Program-made: the position numbers and the translations under genes
Notes under the pieces: generated by a model
What the model saw: only the letters and a program-made list of their open reading frames with translations
What the model was told of the DNA's origin: nothing
The model's database searches: none
In this document: in pieces, positions 6,301 to 44,648 of the stretch
Numbering within the stretch: the stretch's first letter is position 1
Layout of the letters: every line of letters starts with the position of its first letter
Source of the DNA: a virus
Reading direction: 5' to 3' (one strand)
DNA: 63,895 nucleotides
Virus record (IMG/VR): IMGVR_UViG_3300021256_000015
Coordinates: 1-63,895 of that record

Positions 6301-9300
6301 GCACAGCTCATAGTGGAAATGTGACTGTGAATGTTGTAGGCAGTGCCATTGACGCTTCAATATATTCAGGCGCATTGTATGCCTTTGACTTCGCAACACG
6401 CTCCAATAGCGAGAGCGATCACACTATCAGTAACAACGGCAAAACGATGGCTGTTAATGGTGTCAACTGGAACTCCACTGGATTTGTGAAATACCTCGGT
6501 GCAACAGCGTTTCGCATTGCAGAGAAAGCTAAAGCGTCAATTAACCATGAACCCTACGCAGACGCAACATTGAAAGCTAACGGCATGGGTATCCTCTTTT
6601 CCTTTGCTGCAAACCACATTGCCGATGACTCCGCTAAACTCATCAGTTGTTATGACCCATCAAGCGGAGCTGGTTTCTATGTCAGTGGCTCAAAGATAGC
6701 GATATTCTGCAATTCAGGAAGTCCACAACTCGTAGAGCGCGGTTACAGCGTCGGTGAGAAAGTTACTGTAGGCATAGTAGTAGAGCCTAATACAAATGAC
6801 AATATAGTAAGTCAGCTCGGTGTCAACTACGCTTTGATGAAACTCTACATCAACGGCGAGGAGGCTGGATGTATAGGTTACAATCCCACAACCGCAGACC
6901 TCACACAATCCAACAACATATCATTTGACGGCACATATGGTGACTTGTATTTGTATTGGTTTATGGCATGGAATGAGGCTCAGGGTATTAACTGGCAGCA
7001 GTCATTCCACAACTACCTCGTTAAATGCACCGATACAGAGGCAATGATTGATGAGTATGAGTTTGAAGATGTATATACCAGCGTTATTGCCAATGGTCCC
7101 GACCGTGACGCAATATATAGTCGTGGAATGCCATACATCATTGAGAGTCCATTTTTGGGCAGCGACATTGAGTCACTTGATGGCACGATGTCAACAAAAG
7201 ATGCAATATTCATCACATTGCGATACTATGACCCAGCAAGGCCGTGGCGCAACTTTATTGCTTATGGTGTGCAGAAACGCAACCAGGGCACGACATCGGC
7301 AAAGCGTCCAGTGAAGAACGCACGTTACTATTTTGCTAAGAAGAAGGGCATGTCAGAGAACGGCACGCTTGTAGGTTATGACATCGTAAACGGTTTAACA
7401 CAACGCGGCACCACCTATCAAGGCGTGCACATGGAACTGTTGGAGCCCAACTATGCGGAAGACCACAACATCACTGACGCTGCAATTCTTGCCGATATTG
7501 CAATCACGAAATCCCTCATCGCAAAGAATAAAATCCGTGTTGGTGCAAGCACAATTCCAGTTGACCTCATTACAGTCAAAGTGGATTACTCGGACAGTAC
7601 CAACGCAAACGACTGCGCCGCTTGCAACCTTATGAATGCCACATATCGAATGTTAGGCAGTGAGTACATGACCCCTGCACAGCGTTACTATGATGGTACT
7701 TATAAGGTCAATGACGATTTGACTATTAATGGTTTGAACCTAAACCACTCGACCGCAAACCATCCAGTAGCGACATATCGCAGTCTCACAGAGGCAATCA
7801 ACGCCCCATATTTCTATGCAAAGGGCAACTGGAAGGAGGATAAGGGCGAGCAAGTCGCACTTGGTTTCAAAGATACTCCTGGTTACAACAAGGGTTGTTT
7901 GAACTATGGTGATTTCGTTGAGTTCATTGGCACGTCAAGTGAGACACTTACACAGACCGTTAATCGCTTCCTGAATGTGAACACGGAAAAAGATGAAAGT
8001 AAGATATATCTAATATCGCAATATTGTGGCAGTAGTTATAAGTTCTACCGTTGCATTGAAGGCACTTGGACAGACACCACCGGAACGATGCAGCAGGTGA
8101 ACGGCAAGTGGACAATAGCTGGTGACGTTCTCAATCCAGTAGAGGGATTTGAGCTTTTGACCTATCAGGGACTTTGCTGGTGGAAGGGAGTGAGCAGCGT
8201 GGCCGAGATGATGGACACATCTCTTGAAGACAAGTCGTCGTGGGTACAAAAGCTCATTGATGGAGGCAAGGTGCAAGCATCTGAAGTGCCACAATGGACT
8301 CGTTACTTCGAGTGTATGGTGGATGATGATGACCTCGCACTCGCTTACGCAAAGGGATTGAAAGTGCCATATTTCCTCTATAGGCTGCTTTGTTTCTGCC
8401 ATAGCGTTGACTATGCCACCGTTGCAGAGGCGACTTGGAAAGCGAACTGGCGTGCTAATGCCTACAAGTACATGAATGTGAAAGCACTCATGGTTTATTA
8501 CTTGTTCACTGACTATCTCGCTGCTGTGGACCAGCAAGCAAAGAATATGCAACCGATGTTTTTCCTCGACGATGGCGGCACAGTAATCAACGGCGTGTAT
8601 AACGATGAGAAATACATGAGAATGTACCCTAATAAGGTATATGACGCTGATACGCTCATGGGTAAGGACAACGATGGCGGTGACACTATAGACCCCGAAG
8701 TTGACGAGATGAAGGCATCGAACTTCAACGACCTCAATCCATTCATGGGTTATGGCAGTATCTTGTGGCAAGACCTCAACAGACAAACAGAGATGGTGTA
8801 TAATGCAAGTGGCAATATCATAACACTCTATCAGGTTGCCAGCCTCATGCGTGGCGGTACTACCGTTGTTGATGATAAGACCCTGAGTCCTTTCAGTCCA
8901 GATGGCTGCAAGTACTTTTTCCTTGACAAAATCATCAAGAAGTGGCAAAAGACTGTGAGCTCGTTTGATGGTGAGCATAAATTCATCAAGTCCGAAATTG
9001 ACCCAGCGAGCGGCTCAAGCAGTCCATACTTCTATGCGCTGCATGGTTTGCGTCTCACAGCATTGCCGTCCTTCATTGAGAAACGCTTTGCCTTCCGTGA
9101 CGCATACTACCATTGTGGCAGTTTCACAAGTGGAGTAATCGGTGGCCGTATCAACGCTCCTGATAACGCAAAGATACGCATTACCGCCGCTAAGGATGGT
9201 TTCTTTGCTTTTGGCAATGATGCAGGTGGCAGTGTCAGTGGCAGCGTGTATCTCGAGGCAGGTGACAGCTACGAGTTCAATGTAGGCACACAAAATAGCG

Positions 9301-10229
9301 GTAAGCTGTTGTACATCTATCAGGCACACCGACTGAAAGCCATTGACCTGAGTGAGTTGTCACTTGACAGTACTTGGGGTTTCGGCACTTGCGAGTTGAT
9401 TGAGTCGCTGAAGATTGGCAGTAACAGCCATTCGGAGATGGGTATGAGTGTCGGTACTGCATTGACATCTCCAGTAATCGGTGAGCTGCCATTCCTGAAA
9501 GAGATTGACATCCGTAACACTTCCATCACTTCGTTAGATTTGGGAGGGTGTCCGAGACTTGAGGAGGTACTTGCCAGTGGCACGTCACTGACTACTTTGA
9601 CACTTGCACAGACCTCGCCGATTGACACGCTCACTTTGCCGGCCACTATGACCTCGCTGAATTTCATAAACCTGCCAAGTCTAAAATATCCTGCATCGAG
9701 TGGGATCGGTTTGACTTTGAATGGAGTGACGGCAGTTGTCACATTGCGCATCGAGGGCTCTCCGAAAATCAACGCATCAACGCTTTTGAAAGCCATCCTA
9801 ACCGCTCAGAGCACAATCAACAGACTATCCCGATTGAGAATAGCCAATCAGACCATGAAGGGTGATGGTACAGACCTTGCCACTCTCATAACCCGCAACG
9901 TCCAGGGACTCGATAGTGCAGGTCAGGCAATGTCAAAGCCTGTAATCGAGAGCGATTACCACTTGACAAAACTATACGAGAAGTATGAGATTGACGCATG
10001 GGAGGCAGCTATCTATGGGCTCGCTGTGCTGACGGTGATTGACGCTTACATCACGCTCATCAATGAGGTTAACGCCGAGGACTACGGCGGCACGAGCGAG
10101 GTGGAGACCGTGACACTCGCCAATGTGGATGAGCTGGCGTTCAATTACTACAATGGCGAGGAGTATGACGAATATGTCGCCACCTATGCCTCTGACAATG
10201 CCGACATCAACGTAATTGTTAATTCATAA
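3357..10229 (+). CDS. Giant multidomain tail fibre / adhesin (2290 aa)
   Basis: Three phage-fibre repeats (GIATLDGNGKL..., GVATLDENGKL..., RLDEDGKL...), a LamG/ConA-like stretch (LMKLYINGEEAG) and a leucine-rich-repeat block (LDLGGCPRLEEVLASGTSLTTLTL...). Confidence 0.8.
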   Translation: MTAEEKQEIINAVLSSIRTNSKTITQLTPVTELAETDSFEISGGKRVTFGVLSSLIASMSDTDTDALLAAIALKSLKSVSITTTESTATLTISNAEDTIISCSVPIATENKAGIITAAQKIKIDSAYTNSQTALTQSNEAKNAVANINNKLGQPNGIATLDGNGKLVSNQVPSNIPTLTNGKLSESVIPNGVATLDENGKLDSNQIPEDVARLDEDGKLQESLLPSKAHDTLEFYGILDTATILPQSKAKYSTDEGVRIYYILSAKQFACSDDEGETFYSNWLDRGRYSDANFAPWSSKAYICTSTDVLYYWKASAATLQPMGKDFTNEIAQVQENIDDVQSDVDRIETDISNIKASIAPRLMFDGNLLTGNSDNSLTLSQFVALTNASEDYAHVRKRGVVINLTTPDGLKSYQWKGTTWADVEDWKEYGGSAAVGNCYNVTNEIPISGYYDLASAIVATYGKGLAAIGMQITFAVGASTWKTYQYVGANVAQANFTNESNWIDMAGMSAGSEPVINVNALCGAPVSGGYYTLSSARDAISNLTVRTGIDYKKSGLVITYLVGENEWETKQFNGVVEDFANDNMWSVFGESGETIELSPTPAPATAQDPPKAFSTEGAYEYLPDSVTPLTEEEVDALDNTDTENYNYYKFTNADGDKIGSAFPLPKGGGGGGSGQVKVTAIAFQQSPIAAAAGSDNFVIHASIRSMVGEIAYDIHTIQVVDNSTKQTLMTLTPDQPSSASASDYSFTIDVSPFCKEAGTRYIKIIATDNSDQATQFSRTITVKSVDVTVRTIDNLAANMVSTTDTGKVLTLYQFPNNQGSNIEAKVDIYVNNTWKNLTTATVRDNSFHAITINATNIGNDVALAHGSYLLRIQGRDLDSNVTGNIIYTSLLVVNSSSSVPVIALRYNDVSGSGTIKQYETLTMEIAAYVNDSQTVDVTLKKNTANVSTFTAVRNRTYEISQQVQESGDTISPTTLVFQAVSGTAHSGNVTVNVVGSAIDASIYSGALYAFDFATRSNSESDHTISNNGKTMAVNGVNWNSTGFVKYLGATAFRIAEKAKASINHEPYADATLKANGMGILFSFAANHIADDSAKLISCYDPSSGAGFYVSGSKIAIFCNSGSPQLVERGYSVGEKVTVGIVVEPNTNDNIVSQLGVNYALMKLYINGEEAGCIGYNPTTADLTQSNNISFDGTYGDLYLYWFMAWNEAQGINWQQSFHNYLVKCTDTEAMIDEYEFEDVYTSVIANGPDRDAIYSRGMPYIIESPFLGSDIESLDGTMSTKDAIFITLRYYDPARPWRNFIAYGVQKRNQGTTSAKRPVKNARYYFAKKKGMSENGTLVGYDIVNGLTQRGTTYQGVHMELLEPNYAEDHNITDAAILADIAITKSLIAKNKIRVGASTIPVDLITVKVDYSDSTNANDCAACNLMNATYRMLGSEYMTPAQRYYDGTYKVNDDLTINGLNLNHSTANHPVATYRSLTEAINAPYFYAKGNWKEDKGEQVALGFKDTPGYNKGCLNYGDFVEFIGTSSETLTQTVNRFLNVNTEKDESKIYLISQYCGSSYKFYRCIEGTWTDTTGTMQQVNGKWTIAGDVLNPVEGFELLTYQGLCWWKGVSSVAEMMDTSLEDKSSWVQKLIDGGKVQASEVPQWTRYFECMVDDDDLALAYAKGLKVPYFLYRLLCFCHSVDYATVAEATWKANWRANAYKYMNVKALMVYYLFTDYLAAVDQQAKNMQPMFFLDDGGTVINGVYNDEKYMRMYPNKVYDADTLMGKDNDGGDTIDPEVDEMKASNFNDLNPFMGYGSILWQDLNRQTEMVYNASGNIITLYQVASLMRGGTTVVDDKTLSPFSPDGCKYFFLDKIIKKWQKTVSSFDGEHKFIKSEIDPASGSSSPYFYALHGLRLTALPSFIEKRFAFRDAYYHCGSFTSGVIGGRINAPDNAKIRITAAKDGFFAFGNDAGGSVSGSVYLEAGDSYEFNVGTQNSGKLLYIYQAHRLKAIDLSELSLDSTWGFGTCELIESLKIGSNSHSEMGMSVGTALTSPVIGELPFLKEIDIRNTSITSLDLGGCPRLEEVLASGTSLTTLTLAQTSPIDTLTLPATMTSLNFINLPSLKYPASSGIGLTLNGVTAVVTLRIEGSPKINASTLLKAILTAQSTINRLSRLRIANQTMKGDGTDLATLITRNVQGLDSAGQAMSKPVIESDYHLTKLYEKYEIDAWEAAIYGLAVLTVIDAYITLINEVNAEDYGGTSEVETVTLANVDELAFNYYNGEEYDEYVATYASDNADINVIVNS

Positions 10230-10245
10230 AAATTCGCGAACTACT

Positions 10246-11028
10246 ATGAACAAAGAACAATCAGTGACGCTATTGCGTCAAAACAAGCGCAAGCAGGTCG
10301 AGGCTCTACAAAGCCTCGGCTTTGCTGGCGTAAGCGTCGCCACACGTGCAAGCTTGTTTGCCGACTACATCAAGTGGAGTGGAGGTTTGCTTGATGTGCG
10401 TGTGGCGATTGTGAGAATTTCGGATGGTGCTCATTTCTATCTCACAATTCAGGAATGGGAGAGCCTGACCAACGAGAACAAGGCCAAGTTTGTGAAGCAG
10501 GGCGTGCGCATCCGTGCATGTCAGGAGGACTTCATATTGTCGGCTATGGCTCTCGGTACGCTGGCATGGGGCGGTACCTATGACGTGGCAACAGTCCCAA
10601 ACTACGGACAGTCAGGCACATCAAGCGTCTATAATTACAGCGCACGAACTGCACTTGAACTGACAAACTACATCAACGATGCCTACGGCACGACGGTCAG
10701 AAACAGCGTGACCGGCTCCCCTGCCGCTAAAGCTGCGTTGGAGTACAAGGCATTCAAGCAAGCTATTGACGGCGTAGATGACGACAGCGACTGGTGCCTT
10801 CCTTTGCCCAAGCACTGCCTTATTCTATATCGTTACATCAACGAGATTAACGACGTGTTGCGCCGTGCGTGGTCAAGTGACAATATCCTCACCACATCGT
10901 CGTTGTGGACTTGCCTCGAATGCAGCAACGCCAATGCGTGGTATTTCATTATGAGTTACGGCGGTGTAGCTGACCAAGCCAAGACTACCCCAACTACCGT
11001 GCGCCCCATAACATTGTTGAACAGTTAA
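10246..11028 (+). CDS. Paralogue of the DGR variable protein, no intact VR (260 aa)
   Basis: Aligns along its length with CDS 11040-11825 (ADYIKWSGGLLDV / ADYMKWAGGLLDV; GVRIRACQEDFILS / GVRVRAERQDFLVS). Start set at the ATG after the stop of the fibre gene. Confidence 0.75.
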   Translation: MNKEQSVTLLRQNKRKQVEALQSLGFAGVSVATRASLFADYIKWSGGLLDVRVAIVRISDGAHFYLTIQEWESLTNENKAKFVKQGVRIRACQEDFILSAMALGTLAWGGTYDVATVPNYGQSGTSSVYNYSARTALELTNYINDAYGTTVRNSVTGSPAAKAALEYKAFKQAIDGVDDDSDWCLPLPKHCLILYRYINEINDVLRRAWSSDNILTTSSLWTCLECSNANAWYFIMSYGGVADQAKTTPTTVRPITLLNS

Positions 11029-11039
11029 ACAAAATCGAT

Positions 11040-11825
11040 ATGAGTACGACAGAAAACAACGCAAAACTGTTTGAGTTGAACTATAACGCTCAACTTGATG
11101 CCCTGCGCGAGATAGGTTTGCTTGGGGCTAACGAGACCTTGCCACTGGGCAAGATTGCCGACTACATGAAATGGGCCGGTGGTTTGCTTGATGTGCAACT
11201 CGCCAAGGTGGACAAGACCACAGGGCGACTCACGCTGTTCCCCACCGACGAGTGGGACGCGCTGAGCAGCAACCAACAGGGCAATTATCTTACACTTGGT
11301 GTTCGCGTGCGCGCCGAGCGTCAGGACTTCCTTGTAAGCAAGGACAACATGAAGACCAGTAGCGGTGCCTACACGATGCTGTGGTCAAGTGAGCGAGTGA
11401 ACGTTCCTGGCCTGACAGACTACGGAGCGGGCAGCACTGGCATCTATGAGGACTTTGACGCAGCTGGCATGACGGATGCCATTGTGGAACTTGCCGAGGC
11501 ACGTGGTGTGGCATACCTGCCCGCACAGCTGAGTCGCGCCTATAAAGCATGTAACGCCACGGACGATGGCGTTGATGACCCTGTTGTGTGGAGTATGGCC
11601 ACGCTTGCGCACCTGCGCATCCTGCACAAGTATAGAACGCAAATCAATGAAGTCATCAACACTTACATAGGCAGCTCTTTCAAACTTGCCGATGAGCGAT
11701 ACTGGGCAGCCAATGAGTATAGCGCAGATTATGCGTACTATATTCATCTTGGCTCCGGCTTTGTCTACTACAACTGCTACAAGAACATCTACAATTTTCG
11801 TGTTCGTGCAGTCTCCGCATTATAA
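11040..11825 (+). CDS. DGR variable (target) protein, DUF1566/C-type-lectin-like C-terminus (261 aa)
   Basis: The C-terminus YWAANEY...GSGFVYYNCYKNIYNFRVRAVSAL contains the VR. Pattern resembles WxLP...YWSS...vRaV of DUF1566. Confidence 0.85.
   Translation: MSTTENNAKLFELNYNAQLDALREIGLLGANETLPLGKIADYMKWAGGLLDVQLAKVDKTTGRLTLFPTDEWDALSSNQQGNYLTLGVRVRAERQDFLVSKDNMKTSSGAYTMLWSSERVNVPGLTDYGAGSTGIYEDFDAAGMTDAIVELAEARGVAYLPAQLSRAYKACNATDDGVDDPVVWSMATLAHLRILHKYRTQINEVINTYIGSSFKLADERYWAANEYSADYAYYIHLGSGFVYYNCYKNIYNFRVRAVSAL
11749..11818 (+). repeat. DGR variable repeat (VR)
   Basis: 70 nt matching TR 12397-12466, with 9 mismatches, all opposite TR adenines. Confidence 0.9.
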
Positions 11826-11865
11826 CCTGATATGCTCTTTTTCCCTTTGACTCTTTTTCTCTTTT

Positions 11866-11888
11866 AAAGCCGCGTTAGCGGCTTTTTT
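11866..11888 (+). terminator. Hairpin aaagccgc-gtta-gcggcttt plus T-run, 48 nt after the VR
   Basis: 8-bp stem, 4-nt loop, then tttt. Ends the late tail operon. Confidence 0.8.
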
Positions 11889-11890
11889 AT

Positions 11891-11921
11891 TTTGGCATGA
11901 AATCAAAATTAACTACCTTTG
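11891..11921 (+). promoter_or_regulatory. Promoter of the avd-TR-RT unit: -33 TTTG (11891-94), -7 TACCTTTG (11914-21)
   Basis: Matches the Bacteroides sigma-A consensus with 19-nt spacing. Sits 21 nt upstream of the avd ATG. Confidence 0.6.
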
Positions 11922-11942
11922 CGCCATTCAAACATCATCACA

Positions 11943-12305
11943 ATGGCACTTGCTGAGGATTTACCAGTATATAGAGCGATATACAAATTACTCAATATGA
12001 TACTTGACGCTCGTGAGCAGTTCCCCAAGGGTTACCGCTACGAGTTTGGGACGCATTTAATGATGCGTTGTGTTGAGTGTTGTGAACTGATACGCTATGC
12101 CAATAGCGACAAAGATAACAGAGCGTCATATTTGCAGGAGTTTCTTGTGAAGTTTGACGGATTGAGGTTACTACTTAGGGTATGTCAAGACAGAAAGTTA
12201 ATAACAATAAAGCAAGGTGCCGACATGGTTTTGCTTGTTCAGGAAATAGAACGGCAAGCTACTGGATGGCGCAATGCCTCAACTTTCCGCAAGCCAGTGC
12301 CATGA
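11943..12305 (+). CDS. avd: Avd-like accessory variability determinant (four-helix-bundle protein, 120 aa)
   Basis: FPKGYRYEFGTHLMMRCVECCELIRYAN...ASYLQEFLVKFDGLRLLL fits the 23S-IVS/four-helix-bundle family. Lies between VR and TR. Confidence 0.75.
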   Translation: MALAEDLPVYRAIYKLLNMILDAREQFPKGYRYEFGTHLMMRCVECCELIRYANSDKDNRASYLQEFLVKFDGLRLLLRVCQDRKLITIKQGADMVLLVQEIERQATGWRNASTFRKPVP

Positions 12306-12396
12306 GTGTTACGGTGCTCATGGGAGAGCAATTACTTCAGGTTATATTGGGTGTCCCCCTCTCTTGTAAGAGGTAAGATTTAAGTGGGCACATTAG

Positions 12397-12466
12397 TTGG
12401 CTCCGGCTATGTCAACAACAACAACAACAAGAACAACAACAATTATCGTGTTCGTGCAGTCTCCGC
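12397..12466 (+). repeat. DGR template repeat (TR)
   Basis: AAC-rich 70-mer (23 adenines) ending 1 nt before the RT start codon. Confidence 0.9.
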
Positions 12467-12467
12467 T

Positions 12468-13724
12468 ATGGAACCAGTAATCTACGACATACCCTTTTCC
12501 TCAATCGTTGAAGCCTACCGTGATTGTCTAAAAAATAAGCGAGGTACTAATTCCTACACCAAATTCACAATGTCCTATGAGGGGCAATTGGTATGGTTGT
12601 GGGAGCGCATAAAGACACGAACTTATAAGCCTGGCTATTCTTATACATTCATTGTGGACTATCCCGTGACGAGGGAGATTTTTGCCGCCTCGTTCATCGA
12701 CCGAGTGGTGCATCACTATATCGCCCTGCGTATAGAGCCAATACTTGATGCTCTGTTTGTTGAGCAGGGCAATGTGAGCAAGAACTGCCGTAAGGGAGAG
12801 GGCAATATGAAGATGGTGTATGAGGTTGCACAGATACTCCGTGAGGTAAGCGAGGATTACACTACTGATGCCTACATCTTCAAAGGTGACGTTGCTAATT
12901 TCTTTATGAGCATAGATAAGTCAATCCTTTGGGAAATGATTGACGATTTTGTTAGAGAGGAATATAAAGGAGATGACCTTGATTGCCTGTTGTACCTTTT
13001 AAATGTGGTCATTTTCCATTGCCCTCAAGATAGGTGCATCAGGAAATCGCCCATAAAGAAATGGAAGCCATTGCCAAAGCGTAAGAGTCTTTTTTATACA
13101 GAACGAAACAGAGGCATGGCAATCGGCAATTTGCCGAGCCAGCTACTCGCCAACTTCTTTGCATCGGCTTTTGACCAGTGGCTAAAGTATAACGGAGTTG
13201 ATTATTACCGTCGCTTTTGTGATGACTTTGTTATTGTCACAAAAGATAAAGATATGCTATTACAACTAATACCACAGATGGAGAAATACCTTGATGAGCA
13301 GTTGAAAATGTCGTTACATCCCGATAAACGCTATATCCAGCACTACACAAAAGGCGTGAAGATGGTAGGTACTGTAATCAAGCCAGGACGTATTTATGTC
13401 GCCAATCGTACAATAGGCAAATTCTATGAAAAGATTAGATACTATAACACTCTTGCCGATGAGGGTTTGCAGGAACAATACGTAGAGAAGTTCGTGCAGT
13501 CCATAAACAGCTACTATGGCATAATGAAGCATTACAACACATATAACATTCGTAAACGCATAGGCAATGACATGATATTGCCGAAGTGGGCTGGTTATCT
13601 ATATTTCTGCAAAGGGTGGAGTAAAGCGAGTGTAGTAAGGAAGTACAAGCCAATATATATGACACGAAAATCCTACCAGCGTGGCAAGGTGACATTTGCC
13701 CCCGAATTAGGCAAACGAAAATAG
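12468..13724 (+). CDS. DGR reverse transcriptase (418 aa)
   Basis: IGNLPSQ (the DGR-type IGxxxSQ motif), YRRFCDDFVIV (YxDD box) and FKGDVANFFMSID. The start is moved to ATG 12468 because 12384-12467 is the TR. Confidence 0.9.
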   Translation: MEPVIYDIPFSSIVEAYRDCLKNKRGTNSYTKFTMSYEGQLVWLWERIKTRTYKPGYSYTFIVDYPVTREIFAASFIDRVVHHYIALRIEPILDALFVEQGNVSKNCRKGEGNMKMVYEVAQILREVSEDYTTDAYIFKGDVANFFMSIDKSILWEMIDDFVREEYKGDDLDCLLYLLNVVIFHCPQDRCIRKSPIKKWKPLPKRKSLFYTERNRGMAIGNLPSQLLANFFASAFDQWLKYNGVDYYRRFCDDFVIVTKDKDMLLQLIPQMEKYLDEQLKMSLHPDKRYIQHYTKGVKMVGTVIKPGRIYVANRTIGKFYEKIRYYNTLADEGLQEQYVEKFVQSINSYYGIMKHYNTYNIRKRIGNDMILPKWAGYLYFCKGWSKASVVRKYKPIYMTRKSYQRGKVTFAPELGKRK

Positions 13725-16206: not shown

Positions 16207-16611
16207 ATTTGTTGTATTTTTGCATCACCAACCAAAAACCAATGGGGTGGTGTTTGTTCCACCCCTTGGATTTTTAGAGGGCTATCTCTATTTTCACCCT
16301 CAGTTTCCAAATCTTAATGATGATTGTTAGGCTCATAAGATTTTGGTTTTTGGTTGTTTTCCTACTCTTTTCAAGGTTTTCGGAATCCCCTTTGTAAACC
16401 CTCATCGTTTACATTACAAAGTTACTGCTTTATCTTGAATTATGCAAGAAAAAATCAAGTTTTTTTTAAAAAAAAGTGCTTTTTTTTGCTCAATTCAGTA
16501 TGAACTATTGTGCGGTATGGGAGTAATAAGAGCGAGCGTCTTGTGATGATGAATTGTGATGATGAGAGACGCTCAAGTGGGCGCGTCTGTGAAGATACGC
16601 CCATTATGGTA
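16207..16611. other. attP-candidate / regulatory non-coding region
   Basis: T8A8 palindrome 16460-16475, T8 at 16480-87, tandem TTGTGATGATGA x2 (16541-65) inside an inverted repeat, and an 8-bp IR ctttgtaa/ttacaaag (16390-16421). Adjacent to int. Confidence 0.4.
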
Positions 16612-16737: not shown

Positions 16738-17910
16738 TCACTTTAAATTGTCAAGTACCAGCCTCACTGCATCCGTCGCTTGTTGTGGAGTGACTGATAT
16801 GTAGCTGTAGAGTGCGGTGCTCACTTTGTCCACTCTATGCCCCAGGATATAGTCCACAACGCTCTCACTAACTCCAAGTTGGAATGCGTGTTGAGCGAAT
16901 GACTTGCGGGCTGAATAGAAAATCAGATGTTTAATGCCTGCGGCCTCGGCAAGCTGTTTCATGTGATTGACGAAAACGTAATGCAGCCTATCTTTATTGT
17001 TGTACTTGCCAAATAAGAGGCGGCCATCTCTGCCTTTGTATTTGGCAATTAATGGTTTTGCCTCGTCAGGGATTGCGAACTCCACGAACTTGTTAAGTTT
17101 CGGTTTGTTCTTTGTCTTTGTCCTAACATAGTGGATGCGCTTGCAGTCAGTGAAGTCCACCGAGAGCAAGTCAATCGCATTGATGCCACCCAGGTAGTAA
17201 CTCAACATAAATGCGTCACGGCATATTTGCACACTACGCTTATCGCATTTGGCGTCACGGATCTGTCTTATCTCATCCACCGAGAGCCATGATTGCCTTA
17301 CCTCTTGGGCTGGTAGTTCAAAGCCAACGAAAGGGTCATATTGTGGCACTGCATACCTACACCGCTCTGCGAATTTGAGCAACACCATAATGAACACGAG
17401 TCGGTCACGTCGTGTATTAGGTGTGTAGTTGCGTTCCACCATAAACTTGTTAAAACCTACGAGAGTGAGGTGTGTTATGCGCTCAATTAGCATATTTTCG
17501 TCAATGAACGCTGTGATGCAGCGGTAGATTGTCCTATAGTTAATGCGAGTGCCGTTGGCTATGTTTGCCGTCTCAATGTACTTCTCATAGACTTCCTTGA
17601 ATGTCTTGTGGCGGTTGTATTCAGAGTGGGTGATTGCATAGACCAGTTCCGGGCACGTAAGACCGTCTATGTAATCCAGCTCATCGATTGCGTCCCGATA
17701 GTGTTGCACCATCTTCCGTAGTTTGGTATTGAGAAAGGCGGCGTCACCACGGTTAACGACAATGCCGTTTTTGAACTCGCGTACATTATCTATAATAATA
17801 GATGTTGGAATGTAGCGAGTTGTGCCATTGTGGGCGATGGAGATACGCACTTTGTGTTTACCCCCTTTAAGTACCTTAGTAGGTACAATGACAGTTCTAA
17901 TAGTTGCCAT
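16738..17910 (-). CDS. int: Tyrosine site-specific integrase (390 aa)
   Basis: Bacteroidetes-type N-terminus (KGGKHKVRISIAHNGTTRYIPT arm-binding-like). The C-terminal catalytic region includes SARKSFAQHA...ILGHRV...LYSY. Confidence 0.9.
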   Translation of the reverse strand: MATIRTVIVPTKVLKGGKHKVRISIAHNGTTRYIPTSIIIDNVREFKNGIVVNRGDAAFLNTKLRKMVQHYRDAIDELDYIDGLTCPELVYAITHSEYNRHKTFKEVYEKYIETANIANGTRINYRTIYRCITAFIDENMLIERITHLTLVGFNKFMVERNYTPNTRRDRLVFIMVLLKFAERCRYAVPQYDPFVGFELPAQEVRQSWLSVDEIRQIRDAKCDKRSVQICRDAFMLSYYLGGINAIDLLSVDFTDCKRIHYVRTKTKNKPKLNKFVEFAIPDEAKPLIAKYKGRDGRLLFGKYNNKDRLHYVFVNHMKQLAEAAGIKHLIFYSARKSFAQHAFQLGVSESVVDYILGHRVDKVSTALYSYISVTPQQATDAVRLVLDNLK

Positions 17911-18784: not shown

Positions 18785-19141
18785 TTATTTGTTTTGATTT
18801 TTTAGATTTTCATTTTCTCTTTGCAGTGCATCAATCGTCCTTTGCTTTTCCTCGACGATTGATTGCATTTCGCCAATTGTGGCGATGAGTTTAGATAGCC
18901 GGTCATTTGTTTGACTGGCTATCTCTGTTTTGTACATGGGGCCATCCCCTCGCATGAGCCATTCGGCAGATACGTTTGGAAAACTCGCAAGTATTAATTC
19001 GATTGTGTCCAGCCCTAATGCACGGCGACCAGTGATGTAATTGTTGAGCGTGGTGTACTTAATCCCACAAGCGATTGCAAAAGCCCGACTGGTGAGGTTA
19101 TTTGCGATAATAAGCTCATTAATTCTCTTAATAATTTCCAT
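18785..19141 (-). CDS. CI-like HTH repressor (118 aa)
   Basis: LTSRAFAIACGIKYTTLNNYITGRR...AEWLMRGDGPMY plus a C-terminal coiled coil. Divergent from the early genes. Confidence 0.75.
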   Translation of the reverse strand: MEIIKRINELIIANNLTSRAFAIACGIKYTTLNNYITGRRALGLDTIELILASFPNVSAEWLMRGDGPMYKTEIASQTNDRLSKLIATIGEMQSIVEEKQRTIDALQRENENLKNQNK

Positions 19142-19194
19142 AATAAAAAAAACAAACTAACGTGTCCTAAAATGTAACCAAATGTTAAATATCT

Positions 19195-19254
19195 TCATTT
19201 GGCGATATTTTTTCTCAAAAAAATTTGCATATATCGTCATCTGGCGATACTTTT
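19195..19254. promoter_or_regulatory. Divergent control region with two TCATYTGGCGATAYTTTT operator-like repeats
   Basis: Repeats at 19195-19212 and 19237-19254 (42 bp apart). The second overlaps a TACTTTTG -7 box. Confidence 0.5.
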
Positions 19255-19335
19255 GCAACAACAAACAAACTTAGATGCAAATATAGTGCATTTGTTTGGA
19301 ATAACAATAAGTATCACTCAAAAAAAATTACCGCT

Positions 19336-19617
19336 ATGAACGAAAAGAAAAATGAGTCAATTGAGACCAAAGAGACTAACGAACAGACACCAGTAAATCA
19401 GTTGTCAAGGAATGAAATTGAGGCAACAGTTGATGAACTGCGAGCCTACAAGTGTGCGGCAGATGGGAAAATCGCATCCCTTGAAAAAGAAATCGAGAAA
19501 AAGAAGGAGTCCGTGAGCTACTGGATGGACTGCTACACCAAAGCGAGAACCGAATGCGACACACTCAAAGAGGAGATTGCAGCCATCGCCACCCTCGCTG
19601 CCAAACTCGCAAAGTAA
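19336..19617 (+). CDS. Coiled-coil protein (93 aa), first rightward gene
   Basis: ATG start after the control region; heptad-rich EKEIEKKKESV...LKEEIAAIATLAAKLAK. Confidence 0.55.
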   Translation: MNEKKNESIETKETNEQTPVNQLSRNEIEATVDELRAYKCAADGKIASLEKEIEKKKESVSYWMDCYTKARTECDTLKEEIAAIATLAAKLAK

Positions 19618-19644
19618 CCCGCGCCGATAAGTCAAACCACCATA

Positions 19645-19717
19645 GCGGCTTTAGCTCAGCGATGAGAGAGCGCTTACAAGAGGTAAGAGGTCATCGGTGC
19701 AATCCCGATAAGTCGCA
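19645..19717 (+). ncRNA. tRNA-shaped element 1 with a 5-nt (or atypical 7-nt) anticodon loop
   Basis: Hand fold gives acceptor gcggctt/aagtcgc, D stem gctc/gagc and T stem atcgg/ccgat. The anticodon arm is cttac-aagag-gtaag and the T loop is tgcaatc. Confidence 0.45.
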
Positions 19718-20005
19718 CAAAGCCCGAAAGGGCAACCAAAGTAGAGTTCCTTGACGTACTTGATTAATCCGCTGAAACCGCTATAAATCAGATGTGGCAA
19801 GTCAGCGATGAGCAATACACTGGAAGTAGCCTAACCGCCAAGACCCTATCAGGCGAGCGGTGAACGCAATAAGAGTGACATCCGAGCGAGAGCGAAAGGC
19901 AGTGATGCGAGAAACCCTGCAAATGCAGGTCACGAATATTGAGGCGTGTAAGACCTCAATAGAGTAAGAACTATCATTGCAAACAATGCAATCCAATTAT
20001 ATTTC
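19718..20005 (+). ncRNA. Structured non-coding RNA candidate (~290 nt) flanked by tRNA-shaped elements
   Basis: No credible ORF. Tetraloop hairpins gccc-gaaa-gggc, cctgc-aaat-gcagg, cattg-caaa-caatg and a 7-bp attgagg/cctcaat stem. Confidence 0.4.
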
Positions 20006-20089
20006 CGACGCAGGTAGTTAAGCATGGAGTGCCAAGTGCCAGAACGCCTCGACATCGAGGAAGTGCGAGTTCGAGCCTCGCCCTGCGTC
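20006..20089 (+). ncRNA. tRNA-shaped element 3 (canonical T arm, 8-bp acceptor, 4-nt 'anticodon' loop)
   Basis: Hand fold gives gacgcagg/cctgcgtc, T arm gcgag-ttcgagc-ctcgc and arm cctcg-acat-cgagg. The D region is expanded and contains the tandem agtgcca agtgcca. Confidence 0.45.
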
Positions 20090-20218
20090 CTAAACTAAAT
20101 TATATCGCTATGATAAAAGTCATAACACAAGCGTTCAAGCGTGATGAGGATGGAAGTTATCCCATAGTACTTGAACAACGCAAAATATATCTACTCGGTA
20201 TTCTAATCTACAAAAGAG

Positions 20219-20554
20219 TCAGAGAGATAAATACACCTGAAATGATACGGAATTGGAAGTCGCTTGCTGAGTAGTTTTTGCTGCTTTGGCTCCAATGTTG
20301 AAAGTACCAAAGAGCACTGACAACCCTCCACCACTATCTTGTTTGTCATCATGGGCGAGGGTTACGTTGAAGTCAACGACTGAAACTGGATATTGATTGA
20401 CGTTAGTCACATTGGCGATTACTGATTTTTCAGAGATATATTGTTGTGAACCTCTGACCAGATTACATTTCGCATCTTTAACGCCTTGATGTGCCTCATT
20501 CACACCCTCTGCAATCTGTACGAGGGTTTCCTTTACAAAAGTCTTTAAGTCCAT
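20219..20554 (-). CDS. Trypco2-like small protein (111 aa), opposite-strand moron
   Basis: MDLKTFVKETLVQIAEGVNEAHQ...VVDFNVTLAHDD...GG...SVSFQVYLSL resembles the trypsin-co-occurring domain 2 pattern. A - strand TAACTTTG box lies upstream. Confidence 0.45.
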   Translation of the reverse strand: MDLKTFVKETLVQIAEGVNEAHQGVKDAKCNLVRGSQQYISEKSVIANVTNVNQYPVSVVDFNVTLAHDDKQDSGGGLSVLFGTFNIGAKAAKTTQQATSNSVSFQVYLSL

Positions 20555-20682
20555 AGTATTTCTGAATTTGATAGTTAGCGATTGCAAAGTTAAGAAATAT
20601 CTCGGATAAATTAGACTTTTGCCACCGTGAAGCAATGCCCTGCCTCACGGTTTTTAACAGAATAACCAACACCTTTAATAAT

Positions 20683-20883
20683 ATGGAAAAAGTAAAAGAA
20701 CCAATCACCCCCAAGTTAAGAGCCATGCTAATCGGCGAAACTCTTACTTATCCCATTGGACGCTCCAACACCATCCGTAAGATTATATGGACTAATATGC
20801 TGAAAGAGCGTTCAGAGGGTATGCGGTTTTCGTGCAATAACGATATTGAGAAAAAAATCGTAATAGTGACGCGGATCGCATGA
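20683..20883 (+). CDS. Hypothetical protein (66 aa)
   Basis: ATG start; ATGA overlap with the next gene. Confidence 0.5.
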   Translation: MEKVKEPITPKLRAMLIGETLTYPIGRSNTIRKIIWTNMLKERSEGMRFSCNNDIEKKIVIVTRIA

Positions 20884-21143
20884 AACAGATGAACGCCCCT
20901 GCCATTCATCTTGAGAATATCTTGATGGCGATGGCAAACAAATCATTCTGCAAAACCACCGCCGCCGAGATTGTAGGCGGACGCACCCGGTTAGTGAGGC
21001 TTGTAGAGAGTGGCGAGATAAGGGCCACAAAGACATCCAGGCAACAGAACGGGCGATGGTATTGCAACGCAGCTGACGTGCTCAGGCACTGTAAGAACAT
21101 GAGAAAAAATCGTAAGTCAAACCAAAAACCAACAGAGAAATGA
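20880..21143 (+). CDS. Putative HTH DNA-binding protein (87 aa)
   Basis: TTAAEIVGGRTRLVRLVESGEIRA...GRWYCNAADVLRH resembles excisionase/MerR-type HTH. Confidence 0.45.
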   Translation: MKQMNAPAIHLENILMAMANKSFCKTTAAEIVGGRTRLVRLVESGEIRATKTSRQQNGRWYCNAADVLRHCKNMRKNRKSNQKPTEK

Positions 21144-31346: not shown

Positions 31347-33545
31347 ATGGAATACTTAGAATTTCTTGAGACAAAGAAGATAACCGTCAAAAAGAGTGGT
31401 TTTGACGTACAAGAATGCGACCTAAACCCAAAGCTTTTTGACTTTCAAAGATTTTGCGTTCGTAAGATGTTGAAGAATGGTAAGGGCGCAATCTTCGCTG
31501 GTTGTGGAAACGGCAAAACACTCATGCAGCTTGAATGGGCACAAAAAGTCGCAGATCACGAGGAACGTCCAGTACTCATCCTTGCCCCATTATCAGTCAG
31601 TCGCCAGACGATTGCCGAAGGGTGTCGCTTTGGTTACTCTGTTCAATTGTACCGAGATATGACGATTGGTAGTAAGATTGTCATTACCAACTATGAGCAG
31701 ATAGAGAACATAGACATTGACCTTTTCGTGGGCATAGTCCTCGATGAAAGTTCCATTCTCAAAAATTTCACTGGCCACTATAGGCGGTTATTGACTGAGC
31801 GTTTCAAGCACACTCCCTACAAGCTATGCTGTAGTGCCACACCATCACCTAACGACCTCAACGAGATAGGAAACCATAGTGAGTTCCTTGACGTGTTGGA
31901 CGCTCAGGATATGCGTTCCAAGTGGTTTGTGCGTGATGAAGGCATGAACAACTATCGCCTGAAAGGACATGCCAAAGCTGACTTTTACGGATGGATAGCG
32001 AGTTGGGCAATCATGTTTGAAAACCCAGCCGATATCGGTTTTGTGGAGACGGGCAAGCTGTTCAAGCTGCCAAAACTCAACTACTATGAGCACGCCGTCG
32101 AAGTAGCACCGCAAGATGGTCAGTTGTTTGCCAGTGGCATAGTCAACGCCACAAACTTCAATTCCGAGTTACGCAAGACCATGAGCCAACGACTGGAGCT
32201 CGTCGCCAAGCTTGCCCGAGAGACTGAGGGACAAGTCCTCATTTGGGTGAAACAAAACAAAGAGGGCGAGGAGTTGAGGAAACTATTGCCTGAGGCAGTC
32301 GAGGTCAAAGGCAATGACAGTGACAGCCATAAAGAGAAATCACTACTGGACTTTGCCGACGGCAAAATAAGAATATTAATCAGCAAGGCAAAGATTTGCG
32401 GTTACGGCATGAATTTCCAGTCATGCGGAACTCAGATATTCGCAGCTCCTGATTTTTCTTTTGAGGACTTCTACCAGCAGGTACGCCGCTCTTACCGCTT
32501 CGGGCGCAAGGGTGATGTCAACATTCACTTAGTAATCACCGACACAATGAGCAACACAAGAGACATCATTTTGAAGAAACAGAAGGCATTTGAGGAAATG
32601 CAACATGAGATAAACGCCAACATCAATGAGCGTAAATATGGCCTATTGAACGACTACGACTATCGTGAGTATAGAGACGATAAAGTTTTCTTGATGAAAG
32701 GGGACACCACGATAGAGATTAAGAGAGTCCCTGACAACAGCGTGGACTTGATTATTTTTTCCCCCCCCTTCAGCTCCTTGTTTACCTATTCAAACTACAT
32801 CCACGATATGGGTAACAATGAGACACACGAGGACTTTTTTCGGCAATATGCCTTCCTGCTTAAAGAGTTGTATCGCATTTTAAAGCCTGGTAGGTTGATG
32901 TGCTGTCACACTAAGGACTTAGGAGTTTACAAGAACTCGTCGGGCTACACTGGCATGTATGACTTCACTGGAGAGCATACTCGGCACGTCGAGGAAGCAG
33001 GTTTTAAACTCCATTCAAAAATAACAATCTGGACAGATCCAGTCCTTGAAATGCAACGCACCAAAACCCAGCGACTGCTTTACAAGCAAGTTACAAGTGA
33101 CAGTAGTAAGACAGGCATCGGTATGGCTGAGTACATGACAATCTTCAAAAAGTGGGAGGGCGACGAAAAAGACTGGGAGCCAATCGTGGCACTTGACAAA
33201 CAGAACTTTCCGCTTGAGACCTGGCAACGTTGGGCAAGTCCTGTGTGGATGGATATACGACGCACCGACGTGCTGACAGCCAACGAGGGCACAGAGATGG
33301 GTGATGAGAAACACATCTGCCCTCTCCAGCTTGGGGTAATTGAGAGATGCGTCCACCTTTGGAGCAATCCAGGCGAGATTGTGTTTACCCCATTCCTCGG
33401 AATTGGCAGCGAAATCTACGAGGCTGTGAAAGCAGACCGCCGTGGCATTGGCTGTGAGTTAAAAGACAGTTATTTCGACGTGGCAGTAAAGAACATCCGC
33501 AAGGCAGAACTTACTGCAAAACAACCTACACTTTTCGATTTCTAA
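31347..33545 (+). CDS. Helicase-domain / N6-or-N4 DNA methyltransferase fusion (732 aa)
   Basis: The N-terminal SF2 helicase part has FAGCGNGKT and VLDESSILKN. The C-terminal beta-class MTase part has DLIIFSPPF (motif IV) and FTPFLGIGSE (motif I). Confidence 0.8.
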   Translation: MEYLEFLETKKITVKKSGFDVQECDLNPKLFDFQRFCVRKMLKNGKGAIFAGCGNGKTLMQLEWAQKVADHEERPVLILAPLSVSRQTIAEGCRFGYSVQLYRDMTIGSKIVITNYEQIENIDIDLFVGIVLDESSILKNFTGHYRRLLTERFKHTPYKLCCSATPSPNDLNEIGNHSEFLDVLDAQDMRSKWFVRDEGMNNYRLKGHAKADFYGWIASWAIMFENPADIGFVETGKLFKLPKLNYYEHAVEVAPQDGQLFASGIVNATNFNSELRKTMSQRLELVAKLARETEGQVLIWVKQNKEGEELRKLLPEAVEVKGNDSDSHKEKSLLDFADGKIRILISKAKICGYGMNFQSCGTQIFAAPDFSFEDFYQQVRRSYRFGRKGDVNIHLVITDTMSNTRDIILKKQKAFEEMQHEINANINERKYGLLNDYDYREYRDDKVFLMKGDTTIEIKRVPDNSVDLIIFSPPFSSLFTYSNYIHDMGNNETHEDFFRQYAFLLKELYRILKPGRLMCCHTKDLGVYKNSSGYTGMYDFTGEHTRHVEEAGFKLHSKITIWTDPVLEMQRTKTQRLLYKQVTSDSSKTGIGMAEYMTIFKKWEGDEKDWEPIVALDKQNFPLETWQRWASPVWMDIRRTDVLTANEGTEMGDEKHICPLQLGVIERCVHLWSNPGEIVFTPFLGIGSEIYEAVKADRRGIGCELKDSYFDVAVKNIRKAELTAKQPTLFDF

Positions 33546-44491: not shown

Positions 44492-44648
44492 GGAATACGA
44501 ACTTGGCGACGATGCCGAAATATTAGTAGCTGACGATGCCGGTTGGCTGCATGAGTTTAAACTTGAGTACTTCCCTGAGGTGTTTGACGGTTTCGACACC
44601 GCCTACCCAGCGGGATTGAAGATAGTAACAACAAAAGACGAAGAATAA
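44448..44648 (+). CDS. Hypothetical acidic protein (66 aa; non-ATG start, uncertain)
   Basis: No in-frame ATG; GTG/TTG starts only. Ends in TAATG with the next gene. Confidence 0.35.
   Translation: MKLLKLEKLVCSLREEYELGDDAEILVADDAGWLHEFKLEYFPEVFDGFDTAYPAGLKIVTTKDEE

Follow-up and report, generated by a model that had tools for sequence, protein, structure and literature searches.

The viral contig IMGVR_UViG_3300021256_000015, 63,895 nucleotides (nt) long and hereafter 'the window' (all coordinates refer to this whole stretch), is a temperate phage genome. On its plus strand, between 19645 and 20089, lies an RNA unit made of two transfer RNA (tRNA)-like elements, element 1 (19645-19717) and element 2 (20007-20089), separated by a core of 288 nt. 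To the left of this unit are found an integrase gene (16738-17910, minus strand), 1.7 kb away, a gene for a cI-like helix-turn-helix (HTH) repressor (18785-19141, minus strand) and, as the immediate neighbour, a gene of 93 amino acids (aa; 19336-19617, plus strand). To the right, a convergent gene of 138 aa with no assigned function (20219-20635, minus strand) is followed by a phrog_21219 gene (20635-20883, plus strand) and an HTH_17-like phrog_18744 gene (20880-21143, plus strand). An ERF recombinase gene, 2 kb downstream of the RNA, an exonuclease gene, SSB and helicase genes lie further to the right, and the terminase and portal genes occupy 46.4-50.7 kb.

The unit belongs, almost certainly, to a real family of structured RNAs, which is new, previously uncatalogued and carried by temperate Bacteroidales phages of gut and rumen. 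A preliminary description of this stretch had proposed two tRNA-shaped elements bracketing a structured RNA of ~290 nt, and this anatomy is retained here, with the start of element 2 (the third element of that description) moved from 20006 to 20007. The most informative feature goes beyond that description: a conserved core segment, named S1, is perfectly complementary over 18 nt to an epimerase gene of the same phage.

Distribution of the family

Same-sequence copies of the window phage are present in rumen and gut metagenome assemblies, but the six contigs with identical proteins also carry an identical RNA and hence provide no covariation information. Diverged copies were found via loci carrying the ERF gene, and the most conserved 20-mer (CCAAAGnAGAGTnCCTTGAC) then retrieved many more from IMG/VR. 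A profile search (nhmmer) over the ERF-linked and pattern-derived loci gave 40 distinct cores (individual loci bear L numbers below), distributed among three subtypes: W (window-like), A and B. The mean column identity of the homologues is 48%. When GTDB genomes were searched with a motif-plus-spacer pattern, the 17 matches were all in Bacteroidales metagenome-assembled genomes or unclassified; the hosts named are Muribaculaceae, Prevotellaceae, Porphyromonadaceae and Bacteroides. Homologues, ~35 of them distinct, occur in prophages as well as in uncultivated phages, and the unit is intact and internal in prophages located on bacterial contigs of up to 181 kb.

Throughout the family the core measures ~200-320 nt, and the order tRNA (or tRNA-like element), core, tRNA-like element is the rule. 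Both flanks were resolved in approximately two-thirds of the homologues with full flanking sequence, the downstream element being missed by the cloverleaf finder in several; in three subtype-A members (L093, L119 and L120), a longer insert replaces element 2. The ATG of a ~70-aa gene (phrog_21219), itself followed by the ~80-aa HTH_17-like phrog_18744, comes 10-25 nt after the end of element 2 in almost every relative, and other inserts or genes come after the RNA in L093, L119, L120, L139, L011 and L140. The window carries, relative to its relatives, an insertion (20090-20635) that separates the RNA from the phrog_21219 gene, the distance to the phrog_21219/phrog_18744 pair being ~545 nt with the minus-strand 138-aa gene in between. 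An uncalled open reading frame (ORF) of 54 aa (20110-20274) lies inside this window-specific insertion.

A more distant relative of the family is represented by an abundant human-gut branch (L058, 4528-4920; L033, L038 and L040). A genuine tRNA-Arg(CCU), scoring 59 bits, stands upstream in these loci. A diverged S1 (CUAAAAAAGAGUUCUUUGAC) lies 2 nt past its acceptor-plus-discriminator end, and is followed by a different body, a T-arm-like element and the ~70-aa gene family.

Conventional searches brought little else. Rfam 15 holds no similar family, and blastn against GenBank phages returned nothing for the window region and only generic tRNA similarity for a subtype-A relative. IMG/VR searches with the 93-aa and 138-aa flanking proteins gave no relatives, and PDB sequence searches with the phrog_21219 and phrog_18744 proteins gave nothing useful.

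The tRNA-like flanks

Element 1 combines a 7-bp acceptor stem (GCGGCTT/AAGTCGC), a D arm (GCTC..GAGC), a stem CTTAC/GTAAG closed by a 5-nt 'anticodon' loop (AAGAG), and a T arm (ATCGG-TGCAATC-CCGAT) with a non-canonical T loop, UGCAAUC. Element 2 possesses an 8-bp acceptor stem (GACGCAGG/CCTGCGTC) that includes a G-1:C73 pair, a stem CCTCG/CGAGG capped by a 4-nt loop, ACAT (20047-20060), a canonical T arm (GCGAG-TTCGAGC-CTCGC, 20065-20081) and a D stem of merely 3 bp that bears a 23-nt insertion. A tandem direct repeat, AGTGCCA-AGTGCCA (20028-20041), is located within this insertion; its counterpart in L007 reads AATGCCA-AGTGCCA.

Both cloverleaves are maintained by compensatory changes, as the comparison with homologous phages suggested in the preliminary description revealed. 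For element 1, 96.8% of the alignment cells are paired and 8 of 21 pairs show compensatory changes (six window-type homologues); the corresponding values for element 2 are 95.7% and 11 of 17 (19 homologues). These changes affect acceptor, anticodon-stem and T-stem pairs of the two elements. The G-1:C73 pair of element 2 is found in 17 of the 19 homologues, so that the 8-bp acceptor is a feature of the family, and the pair adjoining U8 covaries as well (GC in 13 sequences, AU in 6). The 'anticodon' stem of element 2 is rebuilt repeatedly, as CAGGA/UCCUG, CCGGG/CCCGG, CGGGU/ACCCG, CUGUU/AACAG, ACGC/GCGU, GACCC/GGGUC and, in the window, CCUCG/CGAGG.

The loops closing these stems follow another course. 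Downstream elements have loops of 4-6 nt in 14 of 19 aligned homologues (GAAA, GCAA, ACAC, ACAU, UUAG, CAAUC and others); four have 7-nt loops that are Asn GUU-like, with G33 or A33 instead of U33, and the remaining one (L014) is ambiguous. The upstream elements are of four kinds: Ser(GCU)-like type II elements with C33, 77-nt elements with ACU/ACG loops that lack U33, mini-elements of 65 nt, and elements of 90-103 nt. Where the T loop has shifted from UUC (to AGCAAAG), the D loop has shifted from GG as well, and this joint departure suggests that the elbow is maintained. The upstream element is also held at a regular distance from the core in subtypes A and B, its acceptor end lying 4 nt from the core start (CCAAAG) in 21 of 25 cases and 2-5 nt from it in the others. 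Subtype A and B loci (L092, L093, L011 and others) display a conserved hairpin, CCCCGAAAGGGG then UUGCAAAC, just upstream of element 1; window-type members instead have a comparable GNRA hairpin behind element 1, and their leader carries GUAAGUCAAACC.

ARAGORN detects no tRNA and no transfer-messenger RNA (tmRNA) in the whole window, and the Rfam tRNA model (RF00005) gives no match in the region even at E<=10, both elements falling below its 29-bit gathering threshold. Hence the search for ordinary decoding tRNAs recommended in the preliminary description found none. The flanks of relatives are near-canonical tRNAs or score 30-59 bits with this model, the homologue of element 1 in L007 reaching 51 bits. 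Both elements are tRNA-derived, with the window copies outside the threshold of the tRNA family: the cloverleaf is present, and a 7-nt loop with U33 and a readable anticodon is missing. Decoding has thus been lost and the acceptor and T arms retained, and the inability to decode that had been deduced from the 5-nt and 4-nt loops of the window extends to the whole family. Covarying acceptor and T arms and a maintained elbow, together with decayed anticodon loops, fit modules that RNase P and RNase Z recognise, or a protection of the ends, rather than decoders or decoys for anticodon nucleases. On balance, the flanks are likely to serve as processing or end-defining signals. Among the roles put forward in the preliminary description, RNase P/Z punctuation is accordingly the one that best fits the covariation, the cleavage as such being a proposal.

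Structure of the core

In window-type members, the core opens with P1 (19722-19733, plus strand, as are all the core features), a GCCC-GAAA-GGGC hairpin with a GNRA loop, which occupies this position in these members only. A CG to UA compensatory change is found among its GC/CG pairs, and the loop is GAAA, GCAA or GUAA in all except L007. P1 is followed by S1 (ACCAAAGUAGAGUUCCUUGAC, 19735-19755), the most conserved segment of the family, predicted to be mostly unpaired. Helix P2 then pairs CGCUGA (19770-19775) with UCAGCG (19802-19807) and encloses P2a (CCGC, 19778-19781, with GUGG, 19794-19797). Across 24 sequences, 95.8% of the P2 cells are paired and four of the six pairs are compensatory; in the test of the window-type core the same helix (helix 2) shows six compensatory pairs. 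The junction GAUGAG (19807-19812), between P2 and P3, is identical in 24 of 24 aligned sequences.

The P3 domain (19812-19908) is closed by GCAAUAC (19812-19818) with GUGAUGC (19902-19908) and contains sub-helices such as ACCGC (19834-19838) with GCGGU (19857-19861). Its closing helix is the weakest of the core (77.6% paired, three compensatory pairs), whereas the inner helix 4 is 91.4% paired. After the junction GAGAAAC (19909-19915), the counterpart of GGUAAGAAA and GAUAAGAAA in subtypes A and B, comes the P4 hairpin CCUGC-AAAU-GCAGG (19916-19929; helix 7), which is 100% paired with three compensatory pairs in the window type and has four of seven pairs compensatory in subtypes A and B. The P5 hairpin UAUUGAGG-CGUGUAAGA-CCUCAAUA (19937-19961; helix 8) is 98.4% paired, with six of nine pairs compensatory. 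A conserved tail (GAGUAAGAAC, 19962-19971) then leads to the variable P6 hairpin CAUUG-CAAA-CAAUG (19975-19988) and to an A/U-rich linker that extends to 20006. The GAAA, AAAT and CAAA tetraloop hairpins that the preliminary description had listed in the spacer are thus P1, P4 and P6, and GNRA caps are common in the family.

Two pseudoknots are added to this scheme in subtypes A and B. One joins the junction to the P4 loop (AUAAG:CUUAU, changed to AUAGG:CCUAU in three sequences), and the other is formed between the P5 loop (GUCC) and the tail (GGAC). Both are less well supported than the flanking cloverleaves and helices P2, P4 and P5, and no equivalent of the junction-P4 loop pseudoknot was found in the window. 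Taken together, P4, P5 and the two pseudoknots of subtypes A and B have 96.7% of their cells paired and 8 of 20 pairs compensatory (17 sequences), and the whole window-type core has 93.6% and 20 of 56 (seven sequences). In all covariation tests, none of 500 shuffles matched the observed paired percentage or the covariation score, and structures offset by 1-3 columns were only 16-73% paired overall (29-58% for the three main structures). The fold of the single window sequence is only modestly better than that of its shuffles (z = -2.07), hence the case for the structure rests on the comparison with relatives.

The preliminary description had regarded the region as non-coding, and the homologues bear this out: no ORF of the core is conserved across them, they differ by insertions and deletions whose lengths are not divisible by three, and the same nucleotides are read in one frame by the longest ORF of subtype A and in another by that of subtype B. 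Several other readings of the core were set aside. For subtype A, RNAalifold proposed a pairing of S1 (CUUGAC) with the P5 loop (GUUGAG), which is disrupted in L013 and L014 with no compensatory change; the GUAG-CUGC pairing of S1 that the same program proposed for the window type shows no covariation and competes with P3. Likewise, the succession CUGA...GAUGAG was not retained as a hammerhead or a box C/D (k-turn) motif, as its CUGA belongs to the covarying P2 and is not conserved in subtype B.

Complementarity of S1 to the epimerase gene

A scan of the window showed that nucleotides 19735-19752 of S1 are the perfect 18-nt complement of 45887-45904 (AAGGAACUCUACUUUGGU), within an ORF on the same strand ~26 kb away. 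With up to three mismatches, the 23-mer has only two sites in the window, against none in 100 shuffles (0 expected). The target corresponds to codons (K)GTLLW(Y) of a gene for an NAD-dependent (nucleotide-sugar) epimerase (45445-46239, plus strand; PF01370, phrog_540), located directly upstream of the genes for the small and large terminase subunits and the portal. One of the two coding families of IMG/VR that match the S1 pattern is this epimerase, on the opposite strand, with the motif HNVYGPxPRxGTLLW. In thermodynamic folds, the mean unpaired probability of S1 is 0.58, versus 0.43 elsewhere in the RNA.

The two degenerate positions of S1 face the wobble bases of the target Leu and Gly codons, and within genomes the variable positions of S1 and target agree in each of the four states observed, namely (T,T), (T,C), (A,T) and (A,A). 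L012 adds a fifth, (A,C), and the epimerases of its two source samples, located on other contigs, are also (A,C). The variable positions thereby follow the wobble bases in seven phages besides that of the window. When each RNA was compared with the epimerase of the same contig, 15-21 nt of complementarity to the phage's own epimerase was found in six of eight genomes besides the window. In the (T,T) state, the 18 Watson-Crick pairs of the window are accompanied by 20 bp with one G-U for L007 with epimerase L210. The (T,C) state is represented by L145 with L212 (16 Watson-Crick pairs, 21 with G-U) and L082 with L247 (16 and 18, respectively), the (A,T) state by L089 with L123 and L161 with L086, and the (A,A) state by L138 with L147, the last three combinations each forming 21 Watson-Crick pairs. 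Cognate S1-epimerase pairs outscore pairs formed between lineages.

The window-type epimerases L210, L212 and L247 were retrieved by protein homology and are therefore unbiased at the nucleotide level. All three pair with their S1, with Watson-Crick runs of 15-16 nt and 18-21 bp including G-U. Across the epimerases collected in this unbiased way, variation is far lower in the codons ACT-CTN-CTT-TGG than in those on either side. A scan with a shorter S1 pattern disclosed no second copy in window-type contigs, because the targets of this type differ by G-U-compatible changes. In the abundant gut branch, S1 becomes ..GAGUUCUUUGAC and the Gly codon of the target becomes Arg AGA, the partners being seen on separate contigs only. 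What is expected of a trans-acting antisense small RNA, an accessible seed with complementarity to its target kept by co-variation, is found here, with moderate accessibility and with L014 and L015 as exceptions.

Two further observations concern the surroundings of the pairing region. In the window phage only, a palindrome (TGATTAATCA, 45908-45917) lies directly 3' of the target and GATTAATC (19762-19769) lies 3' of S1; the two are not colinear with the main duplex. IMG/VR matches to the 20-nt S1 pattern that encode TKEECLDLP of an SNF2-type protein were rejected as RNA copies; they come from unrelated environmental phages, in keeping with the ~3 chance events estimated for a pattern of 18 specified bases in a collection as large as this one.

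Transcription and genomic surroundings

Bacteroides promoters follow the consensus TTTG/TAnnTTTG. A candidate early promoter of this Bacteroidetes type can be read at 19224-19255 (plus strand), its two parts, TTTG (19224-19227) and TACTTTTG (19248-19255), being separated by 20 nt. It is overlapped by two copies of the repeat TGGCGATA (19200-19207 and 19242-19249), which lie between the divergent repressor and early genes and may be operator sites. No terminator-like site was found within 19100-20700. The position of the candidate promoter upstream of the 93-aa gene, and the lack of a terminator-like site as far as 20700, are consistent with co-transcription, in which the promoter would drive the 93-aa gene and the RNA as a single transcript. 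Early transcription would have to traverse the convergent 138-aa gene (20219-20635, minus strand) in antisense.

Other features of the window stand apart from the RNA unit. A DUF805b RNA motif (RF02914; 50.2 bits, E = 2.5e-11) at 16359-16393 (minus strand), just downstream of the integrase gene, where attP is expected, is the sole Rfam match in the window at gathering thresholds. A reverse transcriptase ORF (PF00078, 35.7 bits; 12384-13724, plus strand) adjoins ORFs at 3357-10229 and 10216-12305, including one of 2290 aa, in a tail-like region; this locus could be a diversity-generating retroelement. Finally, four genes together suggest a set for TET-type cytosine hypermodification with a sugar donor: a TET-associated glycosyltransferase (PF20691, 34630-35382), a large DNA methyltransferase (42037-43749), a pyrophosphatase (44648-45220) and the epimerase itself (45445-46239).

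Interpretation and alternatives

We propose, as a composite reading to which we give an even chance, that the unit is a tRNA-punctuated antisense regulator of the phage's own epimerase messenger RNA (mRNA). The RNA would be transcribed within the early rightward operon of a temperate Bacteroidales phage. Two cuts would excise the core, with defined ends, from the polycistronic transcript: one after element 1, made by RNase Z of the host or by a comparable 3' activity, and one ahead of element 2, made by RNase P. The unpaired S1 would then pair over 16-21 nt with the mRNA of the epimerase, whose gene heads the packaging and late block, and this pairing would probably modulate the expression or stability of that mRNA. 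The folded body (P2-P5, plus the pseudoknots in subtypes A and B) could confer stability or offer a platform for proteins. As to its parts, the pairing of S1 with the epimerase is probably functional, to judge from the co-variation between the two. The epimerase may belong to a DNA-hypermodification pathway; that the RNA times this pathway or the adjacent late operon is speculation.

Several observations weigh against this antisense reading. The scaffold is kept in L014 and L015 with a degenerate S1, 5-9 nt complementary to their own epimerase (L014 with L157 forms 5-9 nt only), and L013 with L167 reaches 12 nt. Differences among the target codons leave the 3' half of S1 (CCUUGAC) unchanged, which shows that S1 is under a further constraint too. 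Independent lineages are few (four to five), and the three subtype-B pairs of 21 nt were found with the S1 pattern itself, an ascertainment bias. The target lies mid-ORF, not at the ribosome-binding site; S1 exceeds the remainder of the RNA in openness by a moderate margin only (0.58 versus 0.43) and, in window-type members, is removed from the extreme 5' end by the P1 hairpin, which stands between it and element 1. Moreover, S1 and its flank resemble, in the sense orientation, a segment (31873-31900, plus strand) of an SNF2-type helicase gene (31347-33545), with a 14-nt identity (GAGTTCCTTGACGT) and ~24 of 28 positions shared with the S1 consensus of subtypes A and B, encoding NHSEFLDVLD; this resemblance could be fortuitous, or the segment could be the source of S1 or another partner of it. 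Concerning the flanks, CCA inhibits RNase Z of Bacillus subtilis, and ~40% of the upstream elements encode CCA. More generally, all members of the family are known from sequence alone.

Some of these points would be accounted for if the function lay in the fold, the RNA sequestering or scaffolding a protein, or self-assembling in the manner of the large phage RNAs ROOL and GOLLD. The flanks would then excise or protect it, and the epimerase match would be incidental or a relic of its origin. The ornate covarying body, with its many GNRA loops and the two pseudoknots of subtypes A and B, would be expected of such an RNA, as would the constancy of the 3' half of S1 whatever its target and the scaffolds of L014 and L015 without complementarity. 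The likeness of S1 to a helicase coding motif in sense illustrates that short coding coincidences occur, and GOLLD and ROOL are also phage-borne and tRNA-adjacent, with functions that are not known (PMC5737381). An incidental match is nevertheless difficult to reconcile with an 18-nt perfect complement in a single 64-kb genome, where ~0 are expected, or with Watson-Crick runs of 15-16 nt in all three homology-retrieved epimerases, and wobble positions that agree over four or five states would hardly arise unless pairing were selected for. We therefore hold this explanation to be unlikely. The complementarity can also be read as that of a guide. The unit would be a natural tRNA-guide RNA cassette, set free by tRNA-processing enzymes, with a ~20-nt guide and a scaffold as in the omega-RNA of IscB or single-guide RNAs, through which an effector, probably nuclease-dead, binds the epimerase gene or transcript. 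Guide-like perfect matches of 16-21 nt, a position fixed 4 nt behind the tRNA 3' end in subtypes A and B and a pseudoknotted scaffold of 200-300 nt are all in keeping with this, and the layout equals that of engineered polycistronic tRNA-guide RNA (gRNA) arrays. Yet no Cas, IscB, TnpB or Argonaute-like protein is encoded near the RNA in any locus, the neighbours being the ~70-aa and ~80-aa genes and variable upstream genes, and Pfam scans of the ORFs in the middle region of the window revealed no such effector. Cutting its own DNA would harm the phage, and the guide is nearly constant between phages, unlike that of programmable systems. Such a cassette is thus very unlikely. The idea of a natural counterpart of tRNA-gRNA arrays, whose ~20-nt 5' segment would program a probably non-cleaving effector of phage or host onto the epimerase or late-operon locus, is at best a long shot; if true, it would constitute a new class of RNA-guided regulation in Bacteroidales phages.

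The strict synteny of the RNA with the phrog_21219 and phrog_18744 genes, and the end of element 2 only 10-25 nt before the ATG of the ~70-aa gene in nearly all relatives, would suit a processing or leader cassette that acts in cis on these two genes, setting the 5' end, stability or translation of their mRNA with no function in trans. In the window, however, the RNA is fully conserved with these genes 545 nt away behind a convergent gene, and L093, L119, L120, L139, L011 and L140 have other inserts or genes after it. As the complementarity of S1 is also left unexplained, this account has little to commend it. Two well-kept tRNA folds per unit, some of them with Asn (GUU)- or Ser (GCU/ACU)-like loops altered at position 33 and with a tRNA-His-like G-1:C73, recall the anticodon-nuclease decoys envisaged in the preliminary description, that is, mimics that would act as decoys or sponges for host tRNA-targeting defences or tRNA-binding enzymes, with the core as a spacer or accessory. 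This proposal loses ground with the loops, which vary from 4 to 8 nt, are conserved neither in sequence nor in length and are in many cases simple GNRA caps, leaving no conserved nuclease substrate. The upstream element is, moreover, interchangeable among several tRNA types and the most conserved sequence is in the core, not in the flanks, which makes decoys highly improbable. Finally, tRNA genes are frequent integration sites of phages, which often carry pieces of them, and an integrase gene lies 1.7 kb away; the elements might hence be tRNA genes in decay, or a tRNA fragment of the attP type, with a spacer that arose by accident, forming no functional unit. Against this, compensatory changes keep all arms paired in distant relatives, which at 48% mean column identity are not recent copies of one sequence, the spacer itself is the most conserved part, and prophages on bacterial contigs as long as 181 kb contain the unit in full and at an internal position. 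Neither IMG/VR nor a set of 185,579 reference genomes holds an exact match to the 3' half of element 2. This half was therefore not copied from the end of a host tRNA, and an attP site was discarded as an explanation. Decay is in sum barely credible.

Comparison with known systems

The CI immunity RNA of satellite phage P4 mimics a tRNA in part, which leads RNase P to cut it out of a longer transcript, and it acts by pairing with an mRNA of P4 itself. In phages P1 and P7, the C4 antisense RNA, also a partial tRNA mimic, is likewise released by RNase P, and its partner is an mRNA of the phage (PMC5320573, reviewing Hartmann et al. 1995). The RNA described here would share with both the excision by a tRNA-processing enzyme and the pairing with an mRNA of the same phage, as proposed from its sequence, and C4 is its closest functional precedent. 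The differences are nonetheless substantial: C4 is ~77 nt long, with three stem-loops of which two short loops pair at the ribosome-binding site, whereas the present RNA has 250-320 nt, pseudoknots (in subtypes A and B), two complete cloverleaves and one 16-21-nt stretch that matches within an ORF. The host phylum differs as well, and the Rfam C4 model has no match in the window. Complementarity to an mRNA of the same phage hence supports the notion that the RNA works like C4, not that it belongs to the C4 family.

Embedded tRNA folds, either ordinary or unable to decode, act as RNase P/Z signals that define the ends of neighbouring RNAs in the MALAT1-mascRNA and MEN-beta transcripts and in mitochondrial polycistronic transcripts. 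Those systems are eukaryotic or organellar; here such folds would punctuate both ends of a non-coding RNA (ncRNA) of a bacterial virus. Among phage RNAs, species 1 and 2 of the T4 tRNA cluster are stable non-tRNA RNAs co-transcribed with, and processed from, a phage tRNA array. They measure ~140 nt, are tRNA-like and have no known antisense target, and no sequence or model similarity to the present RNA was found.

The preliminary description had also considered membership in a known class of large tRNA-associated phage RNAs. GOLLD and ROOL are indeed borne by phages or prophages, are often adjacent to, and possibly co-transcribed with, tRNAs, and contain GNRA loops and pseudoknots, their biochemical role being not known (PMC5737381; PMC12286853). 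The likeness is limited to these habits (phage location, tRNA adjacency, GNRA loops and pseudoknots): GOLLD and ROOL are much larger (about 580 and 800 nt), occur mainly outside Bacteroidales and have no known antisense target. Their covariance models gave no match, either at gathering thresholds or at E<=10 in sub-searches of 571-751 nt. The two other classes named for checking fared no better: tmRNA has neither an ARAGORN nor an Rfam match and the core has no conserved frame, and a group I intron within a tRNA was rejected, as no Rfam intron model matches and both flanks form entire cloverleaves, each with a separate acceptor stem.

One weak resemblance, the only one to stand out from noise in the E<=10 Rfam scan of the region, concerns the DUF2693 RNA (RF02956), which scores 14.5 bits (E = 3.2) against a gathering threshold of 81.3, only the 5' 25 nt aligning and no helix of the model being matched. 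The unpaired 5' consensus of this RNA (UCUUUGACAUAcUUGAU) resembles S1 and its flank (UCCUUGACGUACUUGAU), both being found in Bacteroidales phage contexts; the divergent gut-phage relative has no match to this model, and the proteins encoded next to the RNA are not DUF2693. With the omega-RNA of IscB and single-guide RNAs, the family has in common a ~20-nt complementary segment near the 5' end followed by a large scaffold. It differs from them in having no associated effector found, a target in the phage's own gene and a nearly invariant guide. In engineered polycistronic tRNA-gRNA arrays, tRNA processing liberates the precise ends of each guide RNA.

Significance

The novelty of the family is within known kinds, namely phage antisense RNAs processed by tRNA enzymes and tRNA-punctuated ncRNAs. 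Bacterial-virus precedents for tRNA folds used as signals only are few and small, C4 of P1 and P7 being an example, and the present unit would be a clear case in which such folds are retained for processing or end definition after the loss of decoding. For annotation, this is a warning that a tRNA-like match with an odd anticodon loop in a phage genome need not be a pseudogene and may denote an ncRNA cassette.

Gut and rumen viromes are dominated by Bacteroidales phages, about whose regulatory RNAs very little is known; to these the family adds a structured RNA with good support from ~35 distinct members and several covarying helices. To our knowledge, Bacteroidales are without the classical Hfq/ProQ machinery for small RNAs. 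Unlike GOLLD, ROOL and other orphan phage RNAs, the family comes with a concrete hypothesis, as a segment of 16-21 nt co-varies with one particular phage gene, that of the nucleotide-sugar epimerase beside the packaging genes.

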